Made by a program: the position numbers and the translations under genes. The notes beneath the pieces are model-generated. The model saw only the letters and a list, made by a program, of their open reading frames with translations. It did not search any database and was not told the DNA's origin. A stretch of DNA of 64,000 bases from Escherichia coli (GTDB taxonomy: Bacteria > Pseudomonadota > Gammaproteobacteria > Enterobacterales > Enterobacteriaceae), in the NCBI RefSeq assembly GCF_050920415.1, contig NZ_CP169309.1. One strand, 5' to 3'. This document shows positions 1 to 9,465 of this stretch, one piece after another. Numbering within the stretch: the first letter of the stretch is position 1; each line of letters begins with the position of its first letter.

Positions 1-49
1 CGCCTCAACCATTACAATAGCGACCCAATTTATCTGAACAGAGTTCATC

Positions 50-1669
50 ATGGCCAAAGCACCAACTAAAAAAGCCAAAGCAAAAAAAGGCTTTGAAGAA
101 ACATTATGGGATACCGCAAACCAGCTTCGCGGTAGCGTTGAATCCTCCGAATACAAGCACGTGGTGTTGAGCCTCGTGTTCCTGAAATTCATCAGCGATA
201 AGTTTGAAGCACGCCGCAAAAAAATGATTGCCGATGGGCAAGCAGACTTCCTTGAGATGGAAGTGTTCTACCAGCAGGACAACATTTTCTACCTGCCGGA
301 AGAGGCGCGCTGGTCATTTATCAAACAAAATGCCAAACAGGACGATATTGCGGTCCGTATTGACACCGCCCTCTCGACCATTGAGAAACGTAACCCAACG
401 CTGAAAGGCGCGCTGCCAGACAACTACTTCAGCCGTCAGAATCTGGAAACCAAAAAACTGGCGTCACTGATTGATACCATCGACAACATCGAAACGCTGG
501 CACACGAAACTGACGTTGAAACGTTATCGAAAGAAGACCTGGTCGGACGCGTTTACGAATACTTCCTCGGTAAGTTTGCCGCAACTGAAGGCAAAGGCGG
601 TGGTGAGTTCTACACGCCTAAATGTGTGGTTACGCTGTTAACTGAAATGCTCGAACCCTTTCAGGGCAAAATTTATGACCCGTGCTGCGGCTCGGCAGGG
701 ATGTTCGTGCAGTCGGTGAAGTTTGTCGAGAGCCATCAGGGTAAAAGTCGTGATATCGCGCTGTATGGTCAGGAACTGACAGCCACGACGTATAAACTGG
801 CAAAAATGAACCTCGCTATTCGCGGTCTTTCAGCTAACCTCGGCGAACGACCGGCAAACACTTTCTTTAGCGACCAGCACCCGGACCTGAAAGCTGACTA
901 CATTCTGGCGAACCCGCCGTTCAACCTGAAAGACTGGCGCAATGAAGCCGAATTAACCAAAGACCCACGTTTTGCTGGGTATCGTATGCCGCCAACCGGT
1001 AACGCCAACTACGGCTGGATTTTGCATATGCTCTCCAAGCTGTCGGCTAACGGCACAGCAGGTTTTGTACTGGCAAACGGTTCGATGAGTTCTAACACCA
1101 GCGGCGAAGGCGAGATCCGTGCACAGATGATCGAAAATGATCTGATCGACTGCATGATCGCCCTACCTGGACAGTTGTTTTACACCACGCAGATCCCGGT
1201 GTGTTTATGGTTTATGACCAAATCGAAGGCTGCCGACCCGGCCAAAGGTTATCGTGATCGTCAGGGCGAGACGCTGTTTATTGATGCGCGTAACCTCGGC
1301 ACCATGATTAGCCGCACAACTAAAGAGTTAACAGCGGAAGATATTGCCACAATCGCCGATACTTACCATGCCTGGCGCAGCACGCCGGAAGAACTGGCTG
1401 CACGGATTGCGCGTGGTGACAGCAAGCTGGAAAAATATGAAGACCAGGCTGGCTTCTGCAAAGTTGCGACCCTGCAAGACATTAAAGATAACGGCTACGT
1501 TCTGACACCGGGCCGCTATGTAGGTGCAGCCGAGCAGGAAGAGGACGGCGTGGCATTTGAGACCAAAATGCGTGAATTGTCGAAGACGTTGTTTGAGCAG
1601 ATGAAGCAGGCGGAAGAACTGGATCGTGCGATTCGCCAGAATCTGGAGGCGCTGGGTTATGGGGAGTAA
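50..1669 (+). CDS. hsdM: Type I restriction-modification methyltransferase subunit (HsdM)
   Basis: 539-aa ORF with AdoMet-binding motif DPCCGSAGMF and N6-adenine catalytic motif LANPPF; followed by an overlapping specificity-subunit gene. Sequence differs from EcoKI HsdM, so the family is not K-12-like. Confidence 0.9.
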   Translation: MAKAPTKKAKAKKGFEETLWDTANQLRGSVESSEYKHVVLSLVFLKFISDKFEARRKKMIADGQADFLEMEVFYQQDNIFYLPEEARWSFIKQNAKQDDIAVRIDTALSTIEKRNPTLKGALPDNYFSRQNLETKKLASLIDTIDNIETLAHETDVETLSKEDLVGRVYEYFLGKFAATEGKGGGEFYTPKCVVTLLTEMLEPFQGKIYDPCCGSAGMFVQSVKFVESHQGKSRDIALYGQELTATTYKLAKMNLAIRGLSANLGERPANTFFSDQHPDLKADYILANPPFNLKDWRNEAELTKDPRFAGYRMPPTGNANYGWILHMLSKLSANGTAGFVLANGSMSSNTSGEGEIRAQMIENDLIDCMIALPGQLFYTTQIPVCLWFMTKSKAADPAKGYRDRQGETLFIDARNLGTMISRTTKELTAEDIATIADTYHAWRSTPEELAARIARGDSKLEKYEDQAGFCKVATLQDIKDNGYVLTPGRYVGAAEQEEDGVAFETKMRELSKTLFEQMKQAEELDRAIRQNLEALGYGE

Positions 1670-2975
1670 GTGGGAAACAGTTAGACTTGGTGATTTAACA
1701 AAGTGGTCATCAGGTGGAACACCTAATAAATCGGAGGATTCATATTGGAATGGTACTATTCCGTGGATTAGCGCGTCCTCTATGGAAGGTCATTTATATA
1801 GCGATTCAAAGCTAAAAATAACTGAAGATGGCTTAATAAATGGCTCTCGACTCGCCCCTGCTAATAGCATTCTTCTTTTAGTAAGAGGCAGTATTCTTCA
1901 TCAAAAAATTCAAGTAGGTTTGGCTACAAAGGCTGTTGCATTTAATCAAGATGTAAAATGTCTCATAGTCAATAATGATATGATTGATCCTTGGTATCTT
2001 TTGCTATGGTTTAAAGCAAAAGAACAAGATCTACTAAAAATAGTAGAAAGCACTGGGATAGGCGCAGGGAAGCTTGACACTAAATTATTAATGGATTACC
2101 CAGTTGAAATTCCACCAAAAGAGATTAAAGAATATATCCGTTTTTTGGGGAAAGCGATTTTTGATAAAATAACGCTCAACGAAAATATAAACTATAATTT
2201 GGAAAAAATGTCCCAAACCTTGTTCAAATCCTGGTTTGTGGATTTTGATCCGGTGATTGATAACGCTCTGGATGTCGGAAATCAAATCCCGGAAGCCCTG
2301 CAAGCTCGTGCCGAATTGCGTCAAAAAGTACGTAATAGTGCAGATTTCAAACCACTTCCGACGGAAATCCGCTCGCTTTTCCCAAGTGAATTTGAAGAAA
2401 CGGAGTTAGGTTGGGTACCAAAAGGTTGGGAAATTGGAAAACTTCAAGACTTACTTATTTTACAAAGAGGATTTGATCTTCCTTCTACCCAAAGAAATAT
2501 CGGTTTACACCCAATAATAGCTGCTAGTGGCTATAATGGCACACATGACATCGCAATGGTGAAAGCCCCTGGGATTGTTACTGGCCGCTCTGGTGTATTA
2601 GGTAATGTTTTCCTAATCCTTGAAGACTTCTGGCCTCTGAATACAACGTTGTGGGTAAAAGAGCTAAAACATGCTACACCATGTTACGGATATGAGTTAC
2701 TTAAAATGATAGATTTCTCTTCATTTAATGGCGGTTCAGCTGTTCCAACATTAAACCGTAATCATATTCACAATTTGGATTACTTGCTTCCACCAAGAAA
2801 TTTAATTGAGAAATTTGAGTTATTTTCTATGTCGTTATATAGACAAGTTCACGAATTCAAAAAACAAGCCCAAACCCTAACAGCCCTCCGCGACACCCTG
2901 CTCCCGAAACTCATCTCCGGCGAGCTATCCCTGGAAGATCTTCCGGATCTCAGCACCGATACAGAAGCTGCATAA
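1659..2975 (+). CDS. hsdS: Type I restriction-modification specificity subunit (HsdS)
   Basis: Two AT-rich variable blocks (about 1680-2220 and 2400-2850) flank a GC-normal conserved core, the usual two-TRD HsdS layout. Likely start ATG 1659 overlaps the hsdM stop (ATGGGGAGTAA), suggesting translational coupling; the ORF track starts it at 1626. Confidence 0.85.
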   Translation: MGSKWETVRLGDLTKWSSGGTPNKSEDSYWNGTIPWISASSMEGHLYSDSKLKITEDGLINGSRLAPANSILLLVRGSILHQKIQVGLATKAVAFNQDVKCLIVNNDMIDPWYLLLWFKAKEQDLLKIVESTGIGAGKLDTKLLMDYPVEIPPKEIKEYIRFLGKAIFDKITLNENINYNLEKMSQTLFKSWFVDFDPVIDNALDVGNQIPEALQARAELRQKVRNSADFKPLPTEIRSLFPSEFEETELGWVPKGWEIGKLQDLLILQRGFDLPSTQRNIGLHPIIAASGYNGTHDIAMVKAPGIVTGRSGVLGNVFLILEDFWPLNTTLWVKELKHATPCYGYELLKMIDFSSFNGGSAVPTLNRNHIHNLDYLLPPRNLIEKFELFSMSLYRQVHEFKKQAQTLTALRDTLLPKLISGELSLEDLPDLSTDTEAA

Positions 2976-3069
2976 CGCATTTTGCCCCTGTAAAATCAGG
3001 GGCTTTCTGGTAAGGTTTTCTACTGATACGGGAATGCTTACCAGAAATTAGCCAGGGTTGGAGCGCGAT

Positions 3070-6000
3070 ATGAGTCTCTCTTTCAGTGAAGCAAAATTAG
3101 AACAAGCGATCATTGAACTGTTACAGGATCAGGGATATCAACACCTGATCGGCGATAATGTCCCACGTTCAAGTCTCGATCAGGTCATTATCGAAGACGA
3201 TCTCCGTCATTATTTAGCGGCACGCTACCAGCCTGATGGCATTACTGAAGAAGAGATTCAGCGACTGATCAAACAGTTCACCACGCTCCCCGCTTCCGAT
3301 CTTTATGAAAGCAACAAAACATTTTGTCGCTGGCTGGCAAATGGTTTTCTGTTCAAACGCGACGATCGGCAACAAAAAGATCTCTATATTGAATTGCTCG
3401 ACACCCGGCATCTACCTGCCGCACTGCGCCAGATATTTGACGCCGAAGATGTCCCGTTGCAACAGGCGGCGGAACTCCCGCCCTCCTATATTAATCCGCC
3501 GCTTAACCGGATTAAGATTGTTAACCAGCTTAAAATCTCCGGTAAAGATAATCAGACTCGTATTCCTGACGGCATTCTCTATATCAACGGTCTGCCACTG
3601 GTCGTCTTTGAATTTAAAAGTGCGGTGCGCGAGCAGGATGCCAGTATTGGCGATGCCTGGAAGCAGCTCTGTAAACGCTATCGCCGGGATATTCCGCAAC
3701 TGTTTATCTACAACGCGCTCTGCATTATTAGCGATGGCGTAAATAACCGGATGGGCAACCTGTTTGCGCCCTATGAATACTTTTACTCATGGCGCAAAGT
3801 CACCGGTAATGAAAACCGTGAACAGGACGGAATTCCGTCATTGCACTCAATGATTCAGGGGCTGTTTCATCCGGTACGTCTGCTGGATGTGATTAAAAAC
3901 TTTATCTGCTTCCCGGATAAAGCCAGGCACGAAGTAAAAATTTGCTGCCGATATCCGCAGTACTATGCCGCCCGCAAACTCTATTACAGCATCAAGCAAG
4001 CGCGTAAACCTTTCGGTAGCGGTAAAGGCGGCACCTACTTTGGCGCAACGGGCTGTGGCAAAAGTTACACCATGCAATTTTTAACGCGTCTTTTGATGAA
4101 GAGCGTGGAGTTTGCCAGCCCGACCATTGTTTTGATCACCGACCGCACCGATCTGGACGATCAGCTTTCTGCGCAAATGTGCAATGCCAAAAATTACATT
4201 GGCGACGACACCATCGTTCCTGTTACCAGCCGTGAAGATTTGCGTAATCAACTGGCGGGACGCAATAGTGGCGGTGTATTCCTGACAACGATCCATAAAT
4301 TCACCGAAGACACCGAACTCCTTTCTGAACGCAGCAATATCATTTGCATCTCGGACGAAGCACATCGCAGCCAGGTTAACCTCGACCAGAAAGTCATCGT
4401 CGATAAAGAAAGCGGAAAAGTGCGCAAAACTTATGGCTTTGCGAAATACCTGCACGATTCACTGCCAAACGCCACCTATGTTGGCTTTACCGGCACACCG
4501 ATTGACGCGACGCTCGATGTCTTCGGTGAGGTGATCGACAGTTACACCATGACCGAATCCGTTCAGGATGAAATCACTGTACGCATCGTGTACGAAGGCC
4601 GTGCGGCTAAAGTGATCCTGGACTCCAGCAAACTGGAAGAAGTCGAAAAGTATTACGAAGAGTGCGCAAACGCAGGCACCAATGAGTGGCAAATCGACGA
4701 AAGCAAGAAAGCCACGGCTACCATGAATGCGGTTCTGGGTGATGAAGATCGGTTAAAAGCCCTCGCGGAAGATTTTGCTAAACATTATGAAAAACGCGTA
4801 GCCGAAGGTTCCACCGTAAAAGGCAAAGCCATGTTTGTTTGCACCAGCCGTGAAATTGCCTGGGATTTCTACCGCCAGCTTAAAGCTATTCGCCCTGCCT
4901 GGTTTGAAGTGAAGCAAGCCCCCGATGGCGTCGTCCTGACGGAACAGGAGCAGAAAGAGTTACCGCCTTCAGAAATGGTGAAGATGGTCATGACGCGCGG
5001 TAAAGATGACGACGAGGCGCTTTATGATTTACTGGGCACAAAAGAATATCGTAAAGAGCTGGATAAGCAGTTCAAAAACGCTAAATCGAATTTCAAAATT
5101 GCCATTGTCGTTGATATGTGGCTGACCGGTTTCGACGTTCCTGAACTGGATACTATCTATATTGATAAACCCTTACAAAAACATAACCTTATCCAGACCA
5201 TTTCTCGCGTTAACCGTAAACTGGAAGGCAAAAGTAAAGGGTTAGTGGTGGACTATATCGGCATTAAGAGTCAGATGAACCAGGCACTGGCAATGTATTC
5301 CCGCATTGATGCCACCAACTTTGAAGATATTCAGCAATCGGTAATAGAAGTTAAAAACCATCTCGATTTGTTGGGGCAAGTCTTTTACGAATTTGACAGT
5401 CGGGATTATTTTAGTGGTGAGCCGCAAGCGCAATTATCCTGCCTCAACCGCGCGGCGGAATTCGTTCTGAGTACCCAGAAAGTTGAACGTCGTTTTATGG
5501 GACTGGTTAAACGCATGAAAGCCGCCTACGACGTCTGCTGCGGCAGCGAAGCATTATCACAGACAGAACGTGACTATATTCACTATTATCTTGCTGTTCG
5601 TTCAATTGTTTTCAAACTGACGAAAGGTGACGCACCGGATGTTACCCAGATGAATGCACGCGTTCGCGAAATGATTGCAGAAGCGTTAAAAGCTGATGGC
5701 GTAGAAGAGATTTATTTTCTTGGCGATAAAAAAGCGGAATCCATCGATATTTTTGACGAAGATTATCTGGCGCGAATTAACAAGATCAAACTTCCGGCAA
5801 CGAAGATCCAGTTATTACAAAAATTACTGGAAAAAGCAATCAGCGACTTCAAGAAAGTGAACCAGTTGCAAGGGATTAACTTCACCCGCCGCTTCCAGGC
5901 GATTATAGATCGTTATAATGAGCGGCGAGAAGATGATGTACTCAACGGTGAAGAATTCGATACATTCAGTCAGGAAATGACCGATATTATCTATGATATT

Positions 6001-6372
6001 AAAACCGAAATGGGCACCTGGGCCGACTTAGGCATTGATATTGAAGAAAAAGCCTTTTTCGACATTCTTGCTCATATGCGCGATAAATATCAGTTCACCT
6101 ATGACGATGAAAAAATGCTGTCACTGGCAAAAGAGATGAAAAGCGTGGTTGACAACACATCGAAATATCCTGACTGGAGTAAACGCGATGATATTAAAGC
6201 GAAACTGAAAGTTGAACTTATTCTGCTTCTACACAAGCATAAGTTCCCGCCAGTAGCGAATGATGATGTTTATATGGGTGTGCTGGCACAGGCAGAGAAT
6301 TTTAAAGAACATCATATGAGTGCTTTAAATTACTATGAACGCCGGATACACTTTGTTATCCGGCCATTGTGA
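3070..6372 (+). CDS. hsdR: Type I restriction enzyme endonuclease/translocase subunit (HsdR)
   Basis: About 1100 aa; N-terminal PD-(D/E)xK-like nuclease motif (YINGLPLVVFEFKSA), Walker A-like GATGCGKSYT and DEAH-type motif II (ICISDEAHRSQ); GGAG RBS 7 nt before ATG 3070. Gene order is M-S-R, unlike the K-12 R-M-S order. Confidence 0.85.
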   Translation: MSLSFSEAKLEQAIIELLQDQGYQHLIGDNVPRSSLDQVIIEDDLRHYLAARYQPDGITEEEIQRLIKQFTTLPASDLYESNKTFCRWLANGFLFKRDDRQQKDLYIELLDTRHLPAALRQIFDAEDVPLQQAAELPPSYINPPLNRIKIVNQLKISGKDNQTRIPDGILYINGLPLVVFEFKSAVREQDASIGDAWKQLCKRYRRDIPQLFIYNALCIISDGVNNRMGNLFAPYEYFYSWRKVTGNENREQDGIPSLHSMIQGLFHPVRLLDVIKNFICFPDKARHEVKICCRYPQYYAARKLYYSIKQARKPFGSGKGGTYFGATGCGKSYTMQFLTRLLMKSVEFASPTIVLITDRTDLDDQLSAQMCNAKNYIGDDTIVPVTSREDLRNQLAGRNSGGVFLTTIHKFTEDTELLSERSNIICISDEAHRSQVNLDQKVIVDKESGKVRKTYGFAKYLHDSLPNATYVGFTGTPIDATLDVFGEVIDSYTMTESVQDEITVRIVYEGRAAKVILDSSKLEEVEKYYEECANAGTNEWQIDESKKATATMNAVLGDEDRLKALAEDFAKHYEKRVAEGSTVKGKAMFVCTSREIAWDFYRQLKAIRPAWFEVKQAPDGVVLTEQEQKELPPSEMVKMVMTRGKDDDEALYDLLGTKEYRKELDKQFKNAKSNFKIAIVVDMWLTGFDVPELDTIYIDKPLQKHNLIQTISRVNRKLEGKSKGLVVDYIGIKSQMNQALAMYSRIDATNFEDIQQSVIEVKNHLDLLGQVFYEFDSRDYFSGEPQAQLSCLNRAAEFVLSTQKVERRFMGLVKRMKAAYDVCCGSEALSQTERDYIHYYLAVRSIVFKLTKGDAPDVTQMNARVREMIAEALKADGVEEIYFLGDKKAESIDIFDEDYLARINKIKLPATKIQLLQKLLEKAISDFKKVNQLQGINFTRRFQAIIDRYNERREDDVLNGEEFDTFSQEMTDIIYDIKTEMGTWADLGIDIEEKAFFDILAHMRDKYQFTYDDEKMLSLAKEMKSVVDNTSKYPDWSKRDDIKAKLKVELILLLHKHKFPPVANDDVYMGVLAQAENFKEHHMSALNYYERRIHFVIRPL

Positions 6373-6452
6373 ATTAACGTTAATTTCTCTTCCAGATATC
6401 TCCAGTAACGCTTTTATTATTTTCTATTTTTAGCTGGACTTTCCCTGTATTT

Positions 6453-6470
6453 ACTGATGATATGTCCAGG
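6453..6470 (+). promoter_or_regulatory. Candidate LexA box (CTG-N10-CAG) upstream of symE
   Basis: TACTGATGATATGTCCAGG matches the CTG-N10-CAG SOS-box spacing about 80 bp upstream of the symE start; symE is a known SOS-induced gene. Confidence 0.4.
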
Positions 6471-6546
6471 TATTTAGCGCGGTGCGGATGTGCGCCAACA
6501 CACCCGCACCGCTAATCACAATCCCTATTTCTAAGGAATAGTAATC

Positions 6547-6888
6547 ATGACTGACACGCATTCTATTGCACAACCGTTCGAAGCAGAAGTCTCCCCGGCA
6601 AATAACCGTCAATTAACCGTGAGTTATGCGAGTCGCTACCCGGATTACAGCCGTATTCCCGCCATCACCCTGAAAGGTCAGTGGCTGGAAGCCGCCGGTT
6701 TTGCCACCGGCACGGCGGTAGATGTCAAAGTGATGGAAGGCTGTATTGTCCTCACCGCCCAACCACCCGCCCCCGAAGAGAGCGAACTGATGCAGTCGCT
6801 GCGCCAGGTGTGCAAACTGTCAGCGCGTAAACAGAAGCAGGTGCAGGAGTTTATTGGGGTGATTGCCGGTAAACAGAAAGTCGCCTGA
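6547..6888 (+). CDS. symE: SOS-induced toxin SymE (AbrB-fold, type I toxin-antitoxin toxin)
   Basis: 113-aa ORF recognised as SymE, in the conserved position beside the hsd genes. Confidence 0.85.
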
Positions 6889-6934
6889 TACATTGACCCG
6901 GTAGCGCCAGTGCTACCGGGTATTATTCGCCACG

Positions 6935-9028
6935 TTATACCAACGCGCTCTCCATCTGTTTTTCAAATGCCTGACGGATTAATCCCATAATGTAAGGAAG
7001 TTGTGCGAGGTCGCTGAAACCAATTTCTACATCGCCATTGCCCCAGCGCCCAACATTTGTGACATCTTTGGCAATACCTTTCGGATCGACCAGTTCATGA
7101 AACTGCATATTAAGCGACAATCGCAGTCGGCTTTTTTGCGGCACAACATCAACAAAATTCGTTTCCGCTTTAAACGCAATATAGAGCTTCAATACTTCCT
7201 GCGTGATCCCTGCGTCCAGGCGCATAACTTCATCGCGAAGATGATCGAATAACACCCGGCTATGCGAACCATCAGCAAGAAAAGGATAATCACTCAGGCT
7301 GTAACTGGTTTTGTTCTCCGGCTGCGCCCGATAAACAGCTAAAACCTCTTCAGGAAGAGCAGGCGCTTGCCAGACCTGAACCGCGAGATCGGCCAGACGA
7401 TCGGCTCGGGCGTGAATGGCAGCTTCATCCCATTTTTCGCACTGTCCAAGACCGATATTCAAATAGAGCGGGCTATGTTTAAAGCCATCTTCAATATCGC
7501 GTTTTTCCGCGAAAGGTCTGTCACTGTAGCGGGAGTTATAGCGCGTTAATGTGAGATTCCCCAACGTATGCAACAGTTCTTTATGCACACGCTGCCAGTC
7601 GCTTCCCAGCTCTTCACGCCATTTAGCCGACAAATTTTCGTTCTGCGGCATAATGTGCTCAATCGTAAACTCTTCCACGCGCTCTCTGCGTTTATCGTTT
7701 TCCAGTCGTCGTAACCAGTAACTGCGACTGCGGAAGTTATAGAGATCGCGAACTTTTAATTCCCGTTTAAATTCATCATCGTTGGGGAAACGACGATATG
7801 AAGGTAGATTCAGAAAATGTACCTGAATACTTTCCAGATAATTTTCTTTATTAATAACTTTATAAAAAGTGGCAAACGTCTTGTTAAGAGAATTTGTCGG
7901 AATCGCACATACTGCACGGCGGAAAACATAAGATTCAATTGAACGAATTATGCTCAGGAAATCTTCGTGAGACAAATCGCCATTTTTATAGTCATGATAA
8001 AGCGCCAGTAAGAAAGGATACGCTACATCGACCTTTAACTCGCGCAAATCCTGAAAAGCCGTAGCAAGCGATTTGTCACTTTCTTTTCCCAATGCCATTG
8101 CACAGTAATACTCCGCGTAGATGTGAATATCTTCAACCAGCCGATCTACGCCTTTTTCAGCAACACTCTGGCTACGGGCATGTAGTTTAAATGCCTCATA
8201 GACTTCATCTGTCCGAGGGATCTCCCCCGTTTTTACCGTCAGATAATGACGCATAAAACTGTCAAAATATTCGCTGTAACCTTGCTGACCAAAAGCGACT
8301 TCCATTGGACGCCAGTGATCTTCATACAACCGGGTTTGATGCTCTGGTTCGAGGCCCATCAGGATAAAATTGCGCACCAGATCGGCCTGACTTAACGCCT
8401 TACCGGTGGAGTTCATACTTTCAAAAATCAGTTGCGGATTATCCTGGCCACGATTAAGTGCCACATCGACAATTAATAACTTTGCTAACCCACGACATAA
8501 GGGGATCAAGTCATCACCGAGTTTGGCAATTTGCTCATCAAAGAAAGTAAAGTTTTCCATTATTCGATGGGAATAGTTTTCTGGCATTGGTCTTTGTTTT
8601 ATTAACGCCAGTAGACTGTCTTTATCAGTCTCGGTCAGCAGTAATTTAAAACCTTTCTCGCCGGACTCATAAGGATTGAGCAAATAATAATTACGCAATT
8701 TCATTGCCGAAAAGCCATCAAAAACTTCGTCTTCGCCAAGATGGCGCGATAAAGCCTCAATCAGCAACATTGCGGTCGTCAGCCGCTGCTGACCATCAAT
8801 GACCAGCAACGGAGAAATACCAGAAACCTGATACAACCCCTGCTCAATATAAACAACCGAACCGATAAAATGCGCTGATATATCGTCACGCTTTCCGGCA
8901 CGAATGATGTCGTCCCAAAGTTGCCGACATTGTTGCCCGGTCCATGAATAGGTGCGTTGATAAATGGGAATAACAAACTGCTGCGAACGTTTTAAAAAAT
9001 CGAGTAGGCGAGCCTCTGTGGCTTTCAT
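6935..9028 (-). CDS. DUF262/DUF1524 two-domain nuclease, GmrSD-like putative modification-dependent (type IV) restriction enzyme
   Basis: 697-aa ORF; N-terminal DUF262 hallmark DGQQRLTT, C-terminal His-Me-finger-like region (EHIMPQNE...). Sits where K-12 carries mcrBC. Confidence 0.7.
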   Translation of the reverse strand: MKATEARLLDFLKRSQQFVIPIYQRTYSWTGQQCRQLWDDIIRAGKRDDISAHFIGSVVYIEQGLYQVSGISPLLVIDGQQRLTTAMLLIEALSRHLGEDEVFDGFSAMKLRNYYLLNPYESGEKGFKLLLTETDKDSLLALIKQRPMPENYSHRIMENFTFFDEQIAKLGDDLIPLCRGLAKLLIVDVALNRGQDNPQLIFESMNSTGKALSQADLVRNFILMGLEPEHQTRLYEDHWRPMEVAFGQQGYSEYFDSFMRHYLTVKTGEIPRTDEVYEAFKLHARSQSVAEKGVDRLVEDIHIYAEYYCAMALGKESDKSLATAFQDLRELKVDVAYPFLLALYHDYKNGDLSHEDFLSIIRSIESYVFRRAVCAIPTNSLNKTFATFYKVINKENYLESIQVHFLNLPSYRRFPNDDEFKRELKVRDLYNFRSRSYWLRRLENDKRRERVEEFTIEHIMPQNENLSAKWREELGSDWQRVHKELLHTLGNLTLTRYNSRYSDRPFAEKRDIEDGFKHSPLYLNIGLGQCEKWDEAAIHARADRLADLAVQVWQAPALPEEVLAVYRAQPENKTSYSLSDYPFLADGSHSRVLFDHLRDEVMRLDAGITQEVLKLYIAFKAETNFVDVVPQKSRLRLSLNMQFHELVDPKGIAKDVTNVGRWGNGDVEIGFSDLAQLPYIMGLIRQAFEKQMESALV

Positions 9029-9465
9029 CCTGGCGTCCTTCCGTGAAGCAATAATGACGCAATAATAACCACTTCCTTGTGAAGGTTATAGCGAAATCCG
9101 GTTTATCCGCGATGAATTGCCCCCTCACTCCACATCCTCCCTGCGTAACCCAATATCTCTCAACCGCTCATCACTCATCTGCTGTAACACGCGTCGGGTC
9201 TGCATTTGCCGCCGCCAACGCCTCACCGCCTGCCAGAGTTGCACCAGGCCGATAAACGGCGCTTTAGCTCTGTTTTCGTGAAATTCCATCTGCTGCCTCC
9301 TCATCTTTCAGAGGCTTCATCATCCGCCTTCTGGCAGTTCACAATACAGATGCAAATATTAGTTTTATTTAACATACAGACAGGTTAAAACAACATCTGC
9401 ATCCGGTTTTTTAGCCTCATCTGTACCGGTTTTTCTCTCTGTATGGTCCAAATAAGGAGTACAGC

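Follow-up and report, generated by a model that had tools for sequence, protein, structure and literature searches.

The symE locus analysed here is very probably the standard E. coli symE-symR module, regulated at the same three levels as in K-12, the expression, LexA binding and repression of this copy being read across from that strain. The system is already known, and the copy in our window (the whole 64,000-nucleotide stretch of E. coli DNA that was analysed) is an ordinary natural variant of it. Its architecture is the same base for base as that of K-12 symE-symR (yjiW-RyjC; a type I toxin-antitoxin pair; Kawano, Aravind and Storz 2007, PMC1891008, RF01809, PF08845), which likewise has an upstream LexA box, a 77-nt RNA beginning 3 nt behind the start codon, an identical promoter embedded in symE and two RNA hairpins, while the differences amount to nine substitutions in SymR, two in the LexA box, five amino-acid changes and other flanking genes. 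The features of the locus, in window coordinates, are as follows:

6435-6440, plus strand: putative symE -35-like element TGGACT, from conservation
6452-6471, no strand assigned: LexA (SOS) operator TACTGATGATATGTCCAGGT, from K-12 orthology; best matrix match in the window
6459-6464, plus strand: putative symE -10-like element GATATG, inside the LexA box and 18 nt after TGGACT
6476-6552, minus strand: symR, 77-nt cis-antisense RNA (Rfam RF01809) that spans the 5'UTR, Shine-Dalgarno sequence and start codon of symE
6533-6537, plus strand: symE Shine-Dalgarno sequence AAGGA, read from the sequence; inside the SymR-complementary stretch
6547-6888, plus strand: symE coding sequence, 113 aa plus stop, from the ORF list, Pfam, K-12 identity and the RefSeq symE annotation
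6560-6565, minus strand: symR -10 element TAGAAT (reverse complement ATTCTA), seven nt upstream of the SymR 5' end
6583-6589, minus strand: putative symR -35 region TTCTGC (6588-6583), with a 17-nt spacer; overlaps the CAGAAG block
6896-6921, no strand assigned: GC-rich hairpin of 10 bp, in the gap that separates symE from the convergent GmrSD gene

The original prediction had called the gene symE from the letters of the sequence, and this identification was borne out by Pfam and by comparison with K-12. The product of the reading frame that opens with the ATG at 6547-6549 matched SymE_toxin (PF08845) with an E-value of 1.4e-21 and 76.8 bits versus a cut-off of 29, and 108 of its 113 residues (96%) are identical to those of K-12 SymE, leaving five amino-acid changes. 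SymE was originally tied to RNA cleavage, and work by Thompson et al. 2022, as relayed in PMC11894785, describes a SymE without endoribonuclease activity that binds DNA non-specifically and compacts the nucleoid. In the literature the activity of the protein is thus disputed between RNA cleavage on the one hand and DNA binding with nucleoid compaction on the other.

The LexA operator consensus is TACTG(TA)5CAGTA. The box upstream of symE is like canonical LexA operators in its CTG-N10-CAG core (CTGATGATATGTCCAG, 6454-6469, with an AT-rich spacer) and in overlapping a putative promoter, and differs from them in having A at position 6, G at position 13 and C at position 15. The motif string given in the original prediction, TACTGATGATATGTCCAGG, is indeed present, at 6452-6470, its proposed start at 6453 being off by one. 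Bare CTG-N10-CAG occurs 19 times in the window versus 11.8 ± 3.2 expected, which is not above chance. The 20-mer at 6452-6471 has the top LexA matrix score in the 64 kb, at 13.0 bits, a level at which about 0.7 sites are expected per shuffled window. The matrix was symmetrised and drew on 27 K-12 SOS boxes of the Lewis 1994 and Fernandez de Henestrosa 2000 lists, excluding that of symE; only seven 16-mer cores among them were confirmed in a paper, and absolute values are approximate. What makes the box credible is therefore its orthology to a LexA-dependent site in K-12, rather than the motif count or the matrix score. It aligns column for column, with two substitutions, with the K-12 yjiW/symE box CTGATGATATATACAG (TACTGATGATATATACAGGT), and the K-12 symE promoter was reported to be bound by LexA and induced by DNA damage (Kawano et al. 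2007, PMC1891008). For K-12 symE the published heterology index is 7.9 and expression is lexA-dependent, with weak induction of 1.5-fold by AZT and a lexA dependence of 2.5-fold.

Conservation of the site was examined across 56 Enterobacterales loci, of which 52 carry CTG-N10-CAG upstream of symE. The four exceptions comprise one truncation at a contig end, two TTG variants and one degenerate copy from a Pantoea symbiont. Across the loci the interior of the box takes more than 25 distinct forms of the 16-mer, and the triplets contacted by LexA are constant. Two Franconibacter symE homologues (L048 and L049) have an unrelated 5'UTR and a near-consensus box, CTGTATATAATCACAG, and Rfam returned no SymR match in either; at these two loci, SOS control would appear to have been kept where the antisense RNA is unrecognisable. 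The K-12 orthology and the conservation in 52 of 56 loci together support the SOS operator proposed in the original prediction, with binding of LexA extrapolated from K-12.

The operator would overlap a putative symE core promoter, placed by a conserved TGGACT-N17/18-(GATATG/TAGATT) arrangement. In nearly all orthologous loci the CTG of the box is preceded, at a distance of 12-13 nt, by TGGACT or a near match to it, and positions 6-11 of the box read GATATG in the window, GATATA in K-12, and TAGATT, with a 17-nt spacer, in Raoultella/Klebsiella-type loci. [quoted passage not shown] TATTTA at 6471-6476 was also considered as the -10 element and rejected, as the start would then lie within the SymR-complementary hairpin. 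A consensus promoter scan of 6300-7000 found neither a symE promoter nor a symR promoter, which we attribute to the poor -35 hexamers of both. In three Phytobacter/Kosakonia loci (L036, L041 and L045) about 44 nt, and in Raoultella ornithinolytica (L040) about 125 nt, of extra sequence separate the LexA box and promoter from the SymR-complementary region, giving a longer symE 5'UTR.

The window allele of the operator, ATGTCCAG, differs from the K-12 allele, ATATACAG, by A to G at 6464 (position 13) and A to C at 6466 (position 15), and from the allele of most E. coli genomes, ATATCCAG, at a single base. Alleles were counted in complete E. coli genomes with 51-mer queries in which every 28-base seed spans both variable sites. 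This revealed the window allele in 327 genomes, or about 11% of those bearing symE, the K-12 allele in 440, including many laboratory derivatives, and ATATCCAG in 1999, so that these three alleles cover 2766 of the 2872 genomes with the locus; the K-12 operator allele is a minority form in E. coli. Each of the two substitutions has precedent. C15, which is found alone in E. albertii and E. whittamii, makes the half-site CCAG, a form shared by 14 verified boxes, while G13 is present in the verified boxes of sulA, recN, rmuC and ydjM and is common on its own in other species (ATGTACAG in Pantoea, Citrobacter and Kluyvera).

The matrix placed the window allele 3.7 bits below that of K-12 (13.0 versus 16.7 bits), and the predicted heterology indices were about 11.0 for the window, 8.3 for K-12 and 9.1 for the majority allele. 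Set against these two, LexA binding to the window allele is predicted, on the Berg-von Hippel assumption, to be some 7- to 15-fold weaker. An index of about 11.0 is comparable to those of the weakest accepted boxes, polB and ybfE, of which the induction of ybfE was not lexA-dependent in one study, and many orthologous symE sites score lower than the window box, at 7-10 bits. We consider the operator to be functional but weak, with only a small chance that it has effectively decayed.

Were the operator decayed in this allele, symE would be basally transcribed and restrained only by SymR and Lon. This reading draws on the non-consensus bases in both half-sites (CTGA...CCAG) together with G13, on the loss in score and predicted affinity relative to K-12, on a matrix score that is at chance level for 64 kb, and on the weak induction of even the K-12 box. 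However, neither the CTG nor the CAG triplet has changed, both substitutions are seen in verified boxes and in orthologous sites, several of the latter at 7-10 bits, the allele is common (327 genomes), and polB, whose heterology index is similar, is a bona fide SOS gene, leaving decay improbable. A functional but weak operator is the reading we prefer. It is likewise doubtful, though conceivable, that the combination of G13 and C15 loosens LexA repression to the point where SymR and Lon, and not LexA, set the basal level of SymE in these lineages.

It is far less probable that CTG-N10-CAG has been conserved through the promoter or some other constraint, and not through LexA binding. The box does overlap the putative -10 element, and the bare motif is not enriched in the window, but it is the LexA-contacted triplets that are conserved while the interior carrying the -10 varies, the Franconibacter loci with their unrelated 5'UTR retain a near-consensus site, and LexA dependence has been demonstrated in K-12. 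Conservation as a LexA operator thus remains our interpretation of the site.

The original prediction expected the antisense RNA SymR across the symE translation start and left its conservation here undecided. In a scan of the whole window, Rfam model RF01809 was matched over its full length (1-77 of 77) on the minus strand at 6476-6552, with 93.1 bits versus a gathering score of 61 and an E-value of 7e-17. The SymR 5' end at 6552 lies 3 nt behind the symE start codon and the 3' end at 6476, an offset from the ATG identical to that of a K-12-type locus, which scored 95.3 bits. Direct comparison with K-12 symR showed the two to be homologous, with 9 of 77 bases different, and the 59 bases upstream of the SymR 5' end (6553-6611, within symE) showed no differences at all. 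The full-model match, the K-12 offset, the identical promoter region and the two hairpins settle the matter in favour of conservation: an intact antisense SymR gene is confirmed in the sequence, as in K-12, from which its expression is read across.

No convincing minus-strand promoter had been seen by eye between 6540 and 6640. In K-12, two silent symE changes that convert CATTCT to CACTCC abolished SymR (Kawano et al. 2007, PMC1891008). As CATTCT is intact in the window at 6559-6564, this assigns the symR -10 element to TAGAAT at 6565-6560, unchanged from K-12 and within the very interval in which no promoter had been recognised. TAGAAT or TACAAT is kept at this offset in 52 of 54 SymR-type loci, and CAGAAG, which overlaps the putative -35 region, is found at ORF offset 37 in 53 of the 54, though neighbouring codons vary. 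Since TTCTGC matches TTGACA poorly, the promoter was overlooked both by eye and by the consensus scan. The blank scan was rejected as proof of absence, as experiments in K-12 have proven this very sequence to be a promoter. The region originally suggested for the search did contain the promoter (about 6560-6589), whereas SymR itself (6476-6552) lies mostly upstream of it. A 53-aa minus-strand ORF at 6451-6612 that overlaps symR was rejected as a gene for lack of support.

The window SymR folds into two hairpins with a minimum free energy of -41.4 kcal/mol and a z-score of -7.2, compared with -37.8 kcal/mol for K-12. Through one substitution the window RNA has a pair where the K-12 3' hairpin has an A·C mismatch, and its 3' hairpin is stronger than the K-12 counterpart. 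In the inner 5' helix, two terminal pairs are non-canonical. The 3' hairpin is followed by UAAAUA (6470-6476, minus strand), with no U-tract, here and in nearly all orthologues, which argues that the 3' end does not arise from a canonical intrinsic terminator. Between this 3' end and the LexA box there are only about 6 nt.

For an unbiased test of the structure, the 56 loci had been fetched via the SymE protein and not via the RNA; they derive from Escherichia, Salmonella, Citrobacter, Klebsiella/Raoultella, Kluyvera, Pantoea, Kosakonia, Chimaeribacter and others. When the Rfam structure was imposed on 53 aligned SymR regions, 92.3% of cells were paired (RNAalifold and pair counts), and the covariation score was 0.256, compared with 0.131 in column shuffles, 0 of 500 of which reached 0.256, and 0.06-0.09 with slid partners. 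Compensatory double changes were found in 8 of the 14 pairs of the 3' hairpin. The same helices are only 77.6% paired on the symE mRNA strand, where G-U pairs of the SymR strand become C-A, and this difference argues for selection on the antisense RNA. Rfam found symR in 15 of 20 diverse loci sampled, and the window SymR scored among the highest of the loci tested. That symR is recognisable yet silent or non-functional in this strain is very unlikely, for while nine bases differ from K-12, the inner 5' helix has non-canonical pairs at two terminal positions and the consensus scan found no promoter, the promoter region is identical to the validated one in K-12, on which the scan is equally blank, the Rfam score is high, the 3' hairpin is stronger than in K-12, and the antisense complementarity is perfect by construction.

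An intact symR, together with the operator, suggests the following course of regulation. A LexA dimer on 6452-6471, overlapping the putative -10 element and start, would keep symE transcription off until DNA damage, when RecA-stimulated self-cleavage of LexA would free the promoter. SymR, made constitutively from the promoter in symE codons 4-15, would pair with the 5'UTR, Shine-Dalgarno sequence and AUG of the symE mRNA, chiefly blocking translation and modestly reducing the mRNA, and Lon protease would clear the SymE protein. In K-12, SymR is stable and in about 10-fold excess even after induction, its absence raises SymE protein more than 7-fold and the mRNA about 3-fold in an RNase III-independent manner, and Lon degrades SymE (PMC1891008). 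The role given to SymR in the original prediction, that of an antisense antitoxin acting across the symE translation start, agrees with its placement here, where 6476-6552 on the minus strand spans both the AUG and the Shine-Dalgarno sequence. The SOS-induced type I pairs tisB-istR1 and dinQ-agrB of E. coli likewise combine LexA-repressed transcription of the toxin with translation blocked by a small RNA, but they have small hydrophobic membrane peptides as toxins and antitoxin RNAs in another arrangement, whereas SymE is a 113-aa AbrB/MazE-like soluble protein and SymR a stable, abundant RNA.

On the E. coli chromosome the module sits between yjiA and yjiS, in a region where the restriction genes vary. 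Bases 1-15934 of the window are 100% identical to E. coli MFDS1022581 (NZ_CP169399.1) by sequence comparison. Upstream of symE is a type I restriction system of hsdM, hsdS and hsdR on the plus strand, with hsdR ending at 6372, and downstream is a convergent 697-aa GmrSD-type gene (6935-9028, minus strand). The order at this place in K-12 is hsdR-M-S, symE and mcrBC, compared with hsdM-S-R, symE and the convergent GmrSD gene in the window, and similarity to K-12 spans about 6421 to about 6884, such that the symE module of about 465 bp alone is held in common. In other E. coli the flanks vary, with the upstream flank, the downstream flank or neither shared. The difference in flanking restriction genes from K-12 places the symE-symR cassette at a junction where this variable region recombines. 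It is conceivable, though doubtful, that the cassette holds its place between swapped restriction cassettes through a functional link to defence islands.

The hairpin at 6896-6921 between the convergent genes has a folding energy of -20.2 kcal/mol on the plus strand and -19.6 kcal/mol on the minus strand and is possibly a terminator without a strong T-run, although a terminator scan of 6300-7000 did not call it. The GmrSD gene forms one unbroken 697-aa ORF with GmrSD_N, GmrSD_C and DUF5655 domains, which the identical RefSeq record splits into a 388-aa CDS and an N-terminal 'pseudogene' with an unannotated gap between them. The split is probably an annotation artefact, and judged by its reading frame this type IV restriction gene looks intact. 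Elsewhere in the window, both Rfam and ARAGORN called a tRNA-Leu with anticodon CAA, as in leuX, at 58292-58376 on the minus strand.

Further observations came from the orthologous loci. In several Citrobacter and Raoultella genomes a single contig bears two divergent symE-symR copies, separated by 12-36 kb, and each copy of the pairs L025/L029, L027/L043, L030/L033 and L020/L035 has its own type of LexA box. Two contigs from 'Bacillota bacterium' MAGs (L005 and L008) encode SymE proteins 94-96% identical to that of E. coli within E. coli-like flanks, and are most likely mis-binned Enterobacteriaceae contigs. In Pantoea sp. ARC607 (L011), an IS1222-type ribosomal frameshift element (RF00383, 147 bits) at 563-680, about 2.3 kb upstream of symE, indicates that an insertion sequence adjoins the module in this strain.

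Beyond correct annotation the locus matters little: the RefSeq label here, 'endoribonuclease SymE', names an activity that later work contests, and symR is left unannotated. If the weaker operator allele does loosen repression, it would represent a natural heritable difference in the leakiness of an SOS-controlled toxin or nucleoid protein. The natural symE operator alleles of E. coli could be used for testing how the output of a weakly induced SOS gene depends on the strength of its operator.
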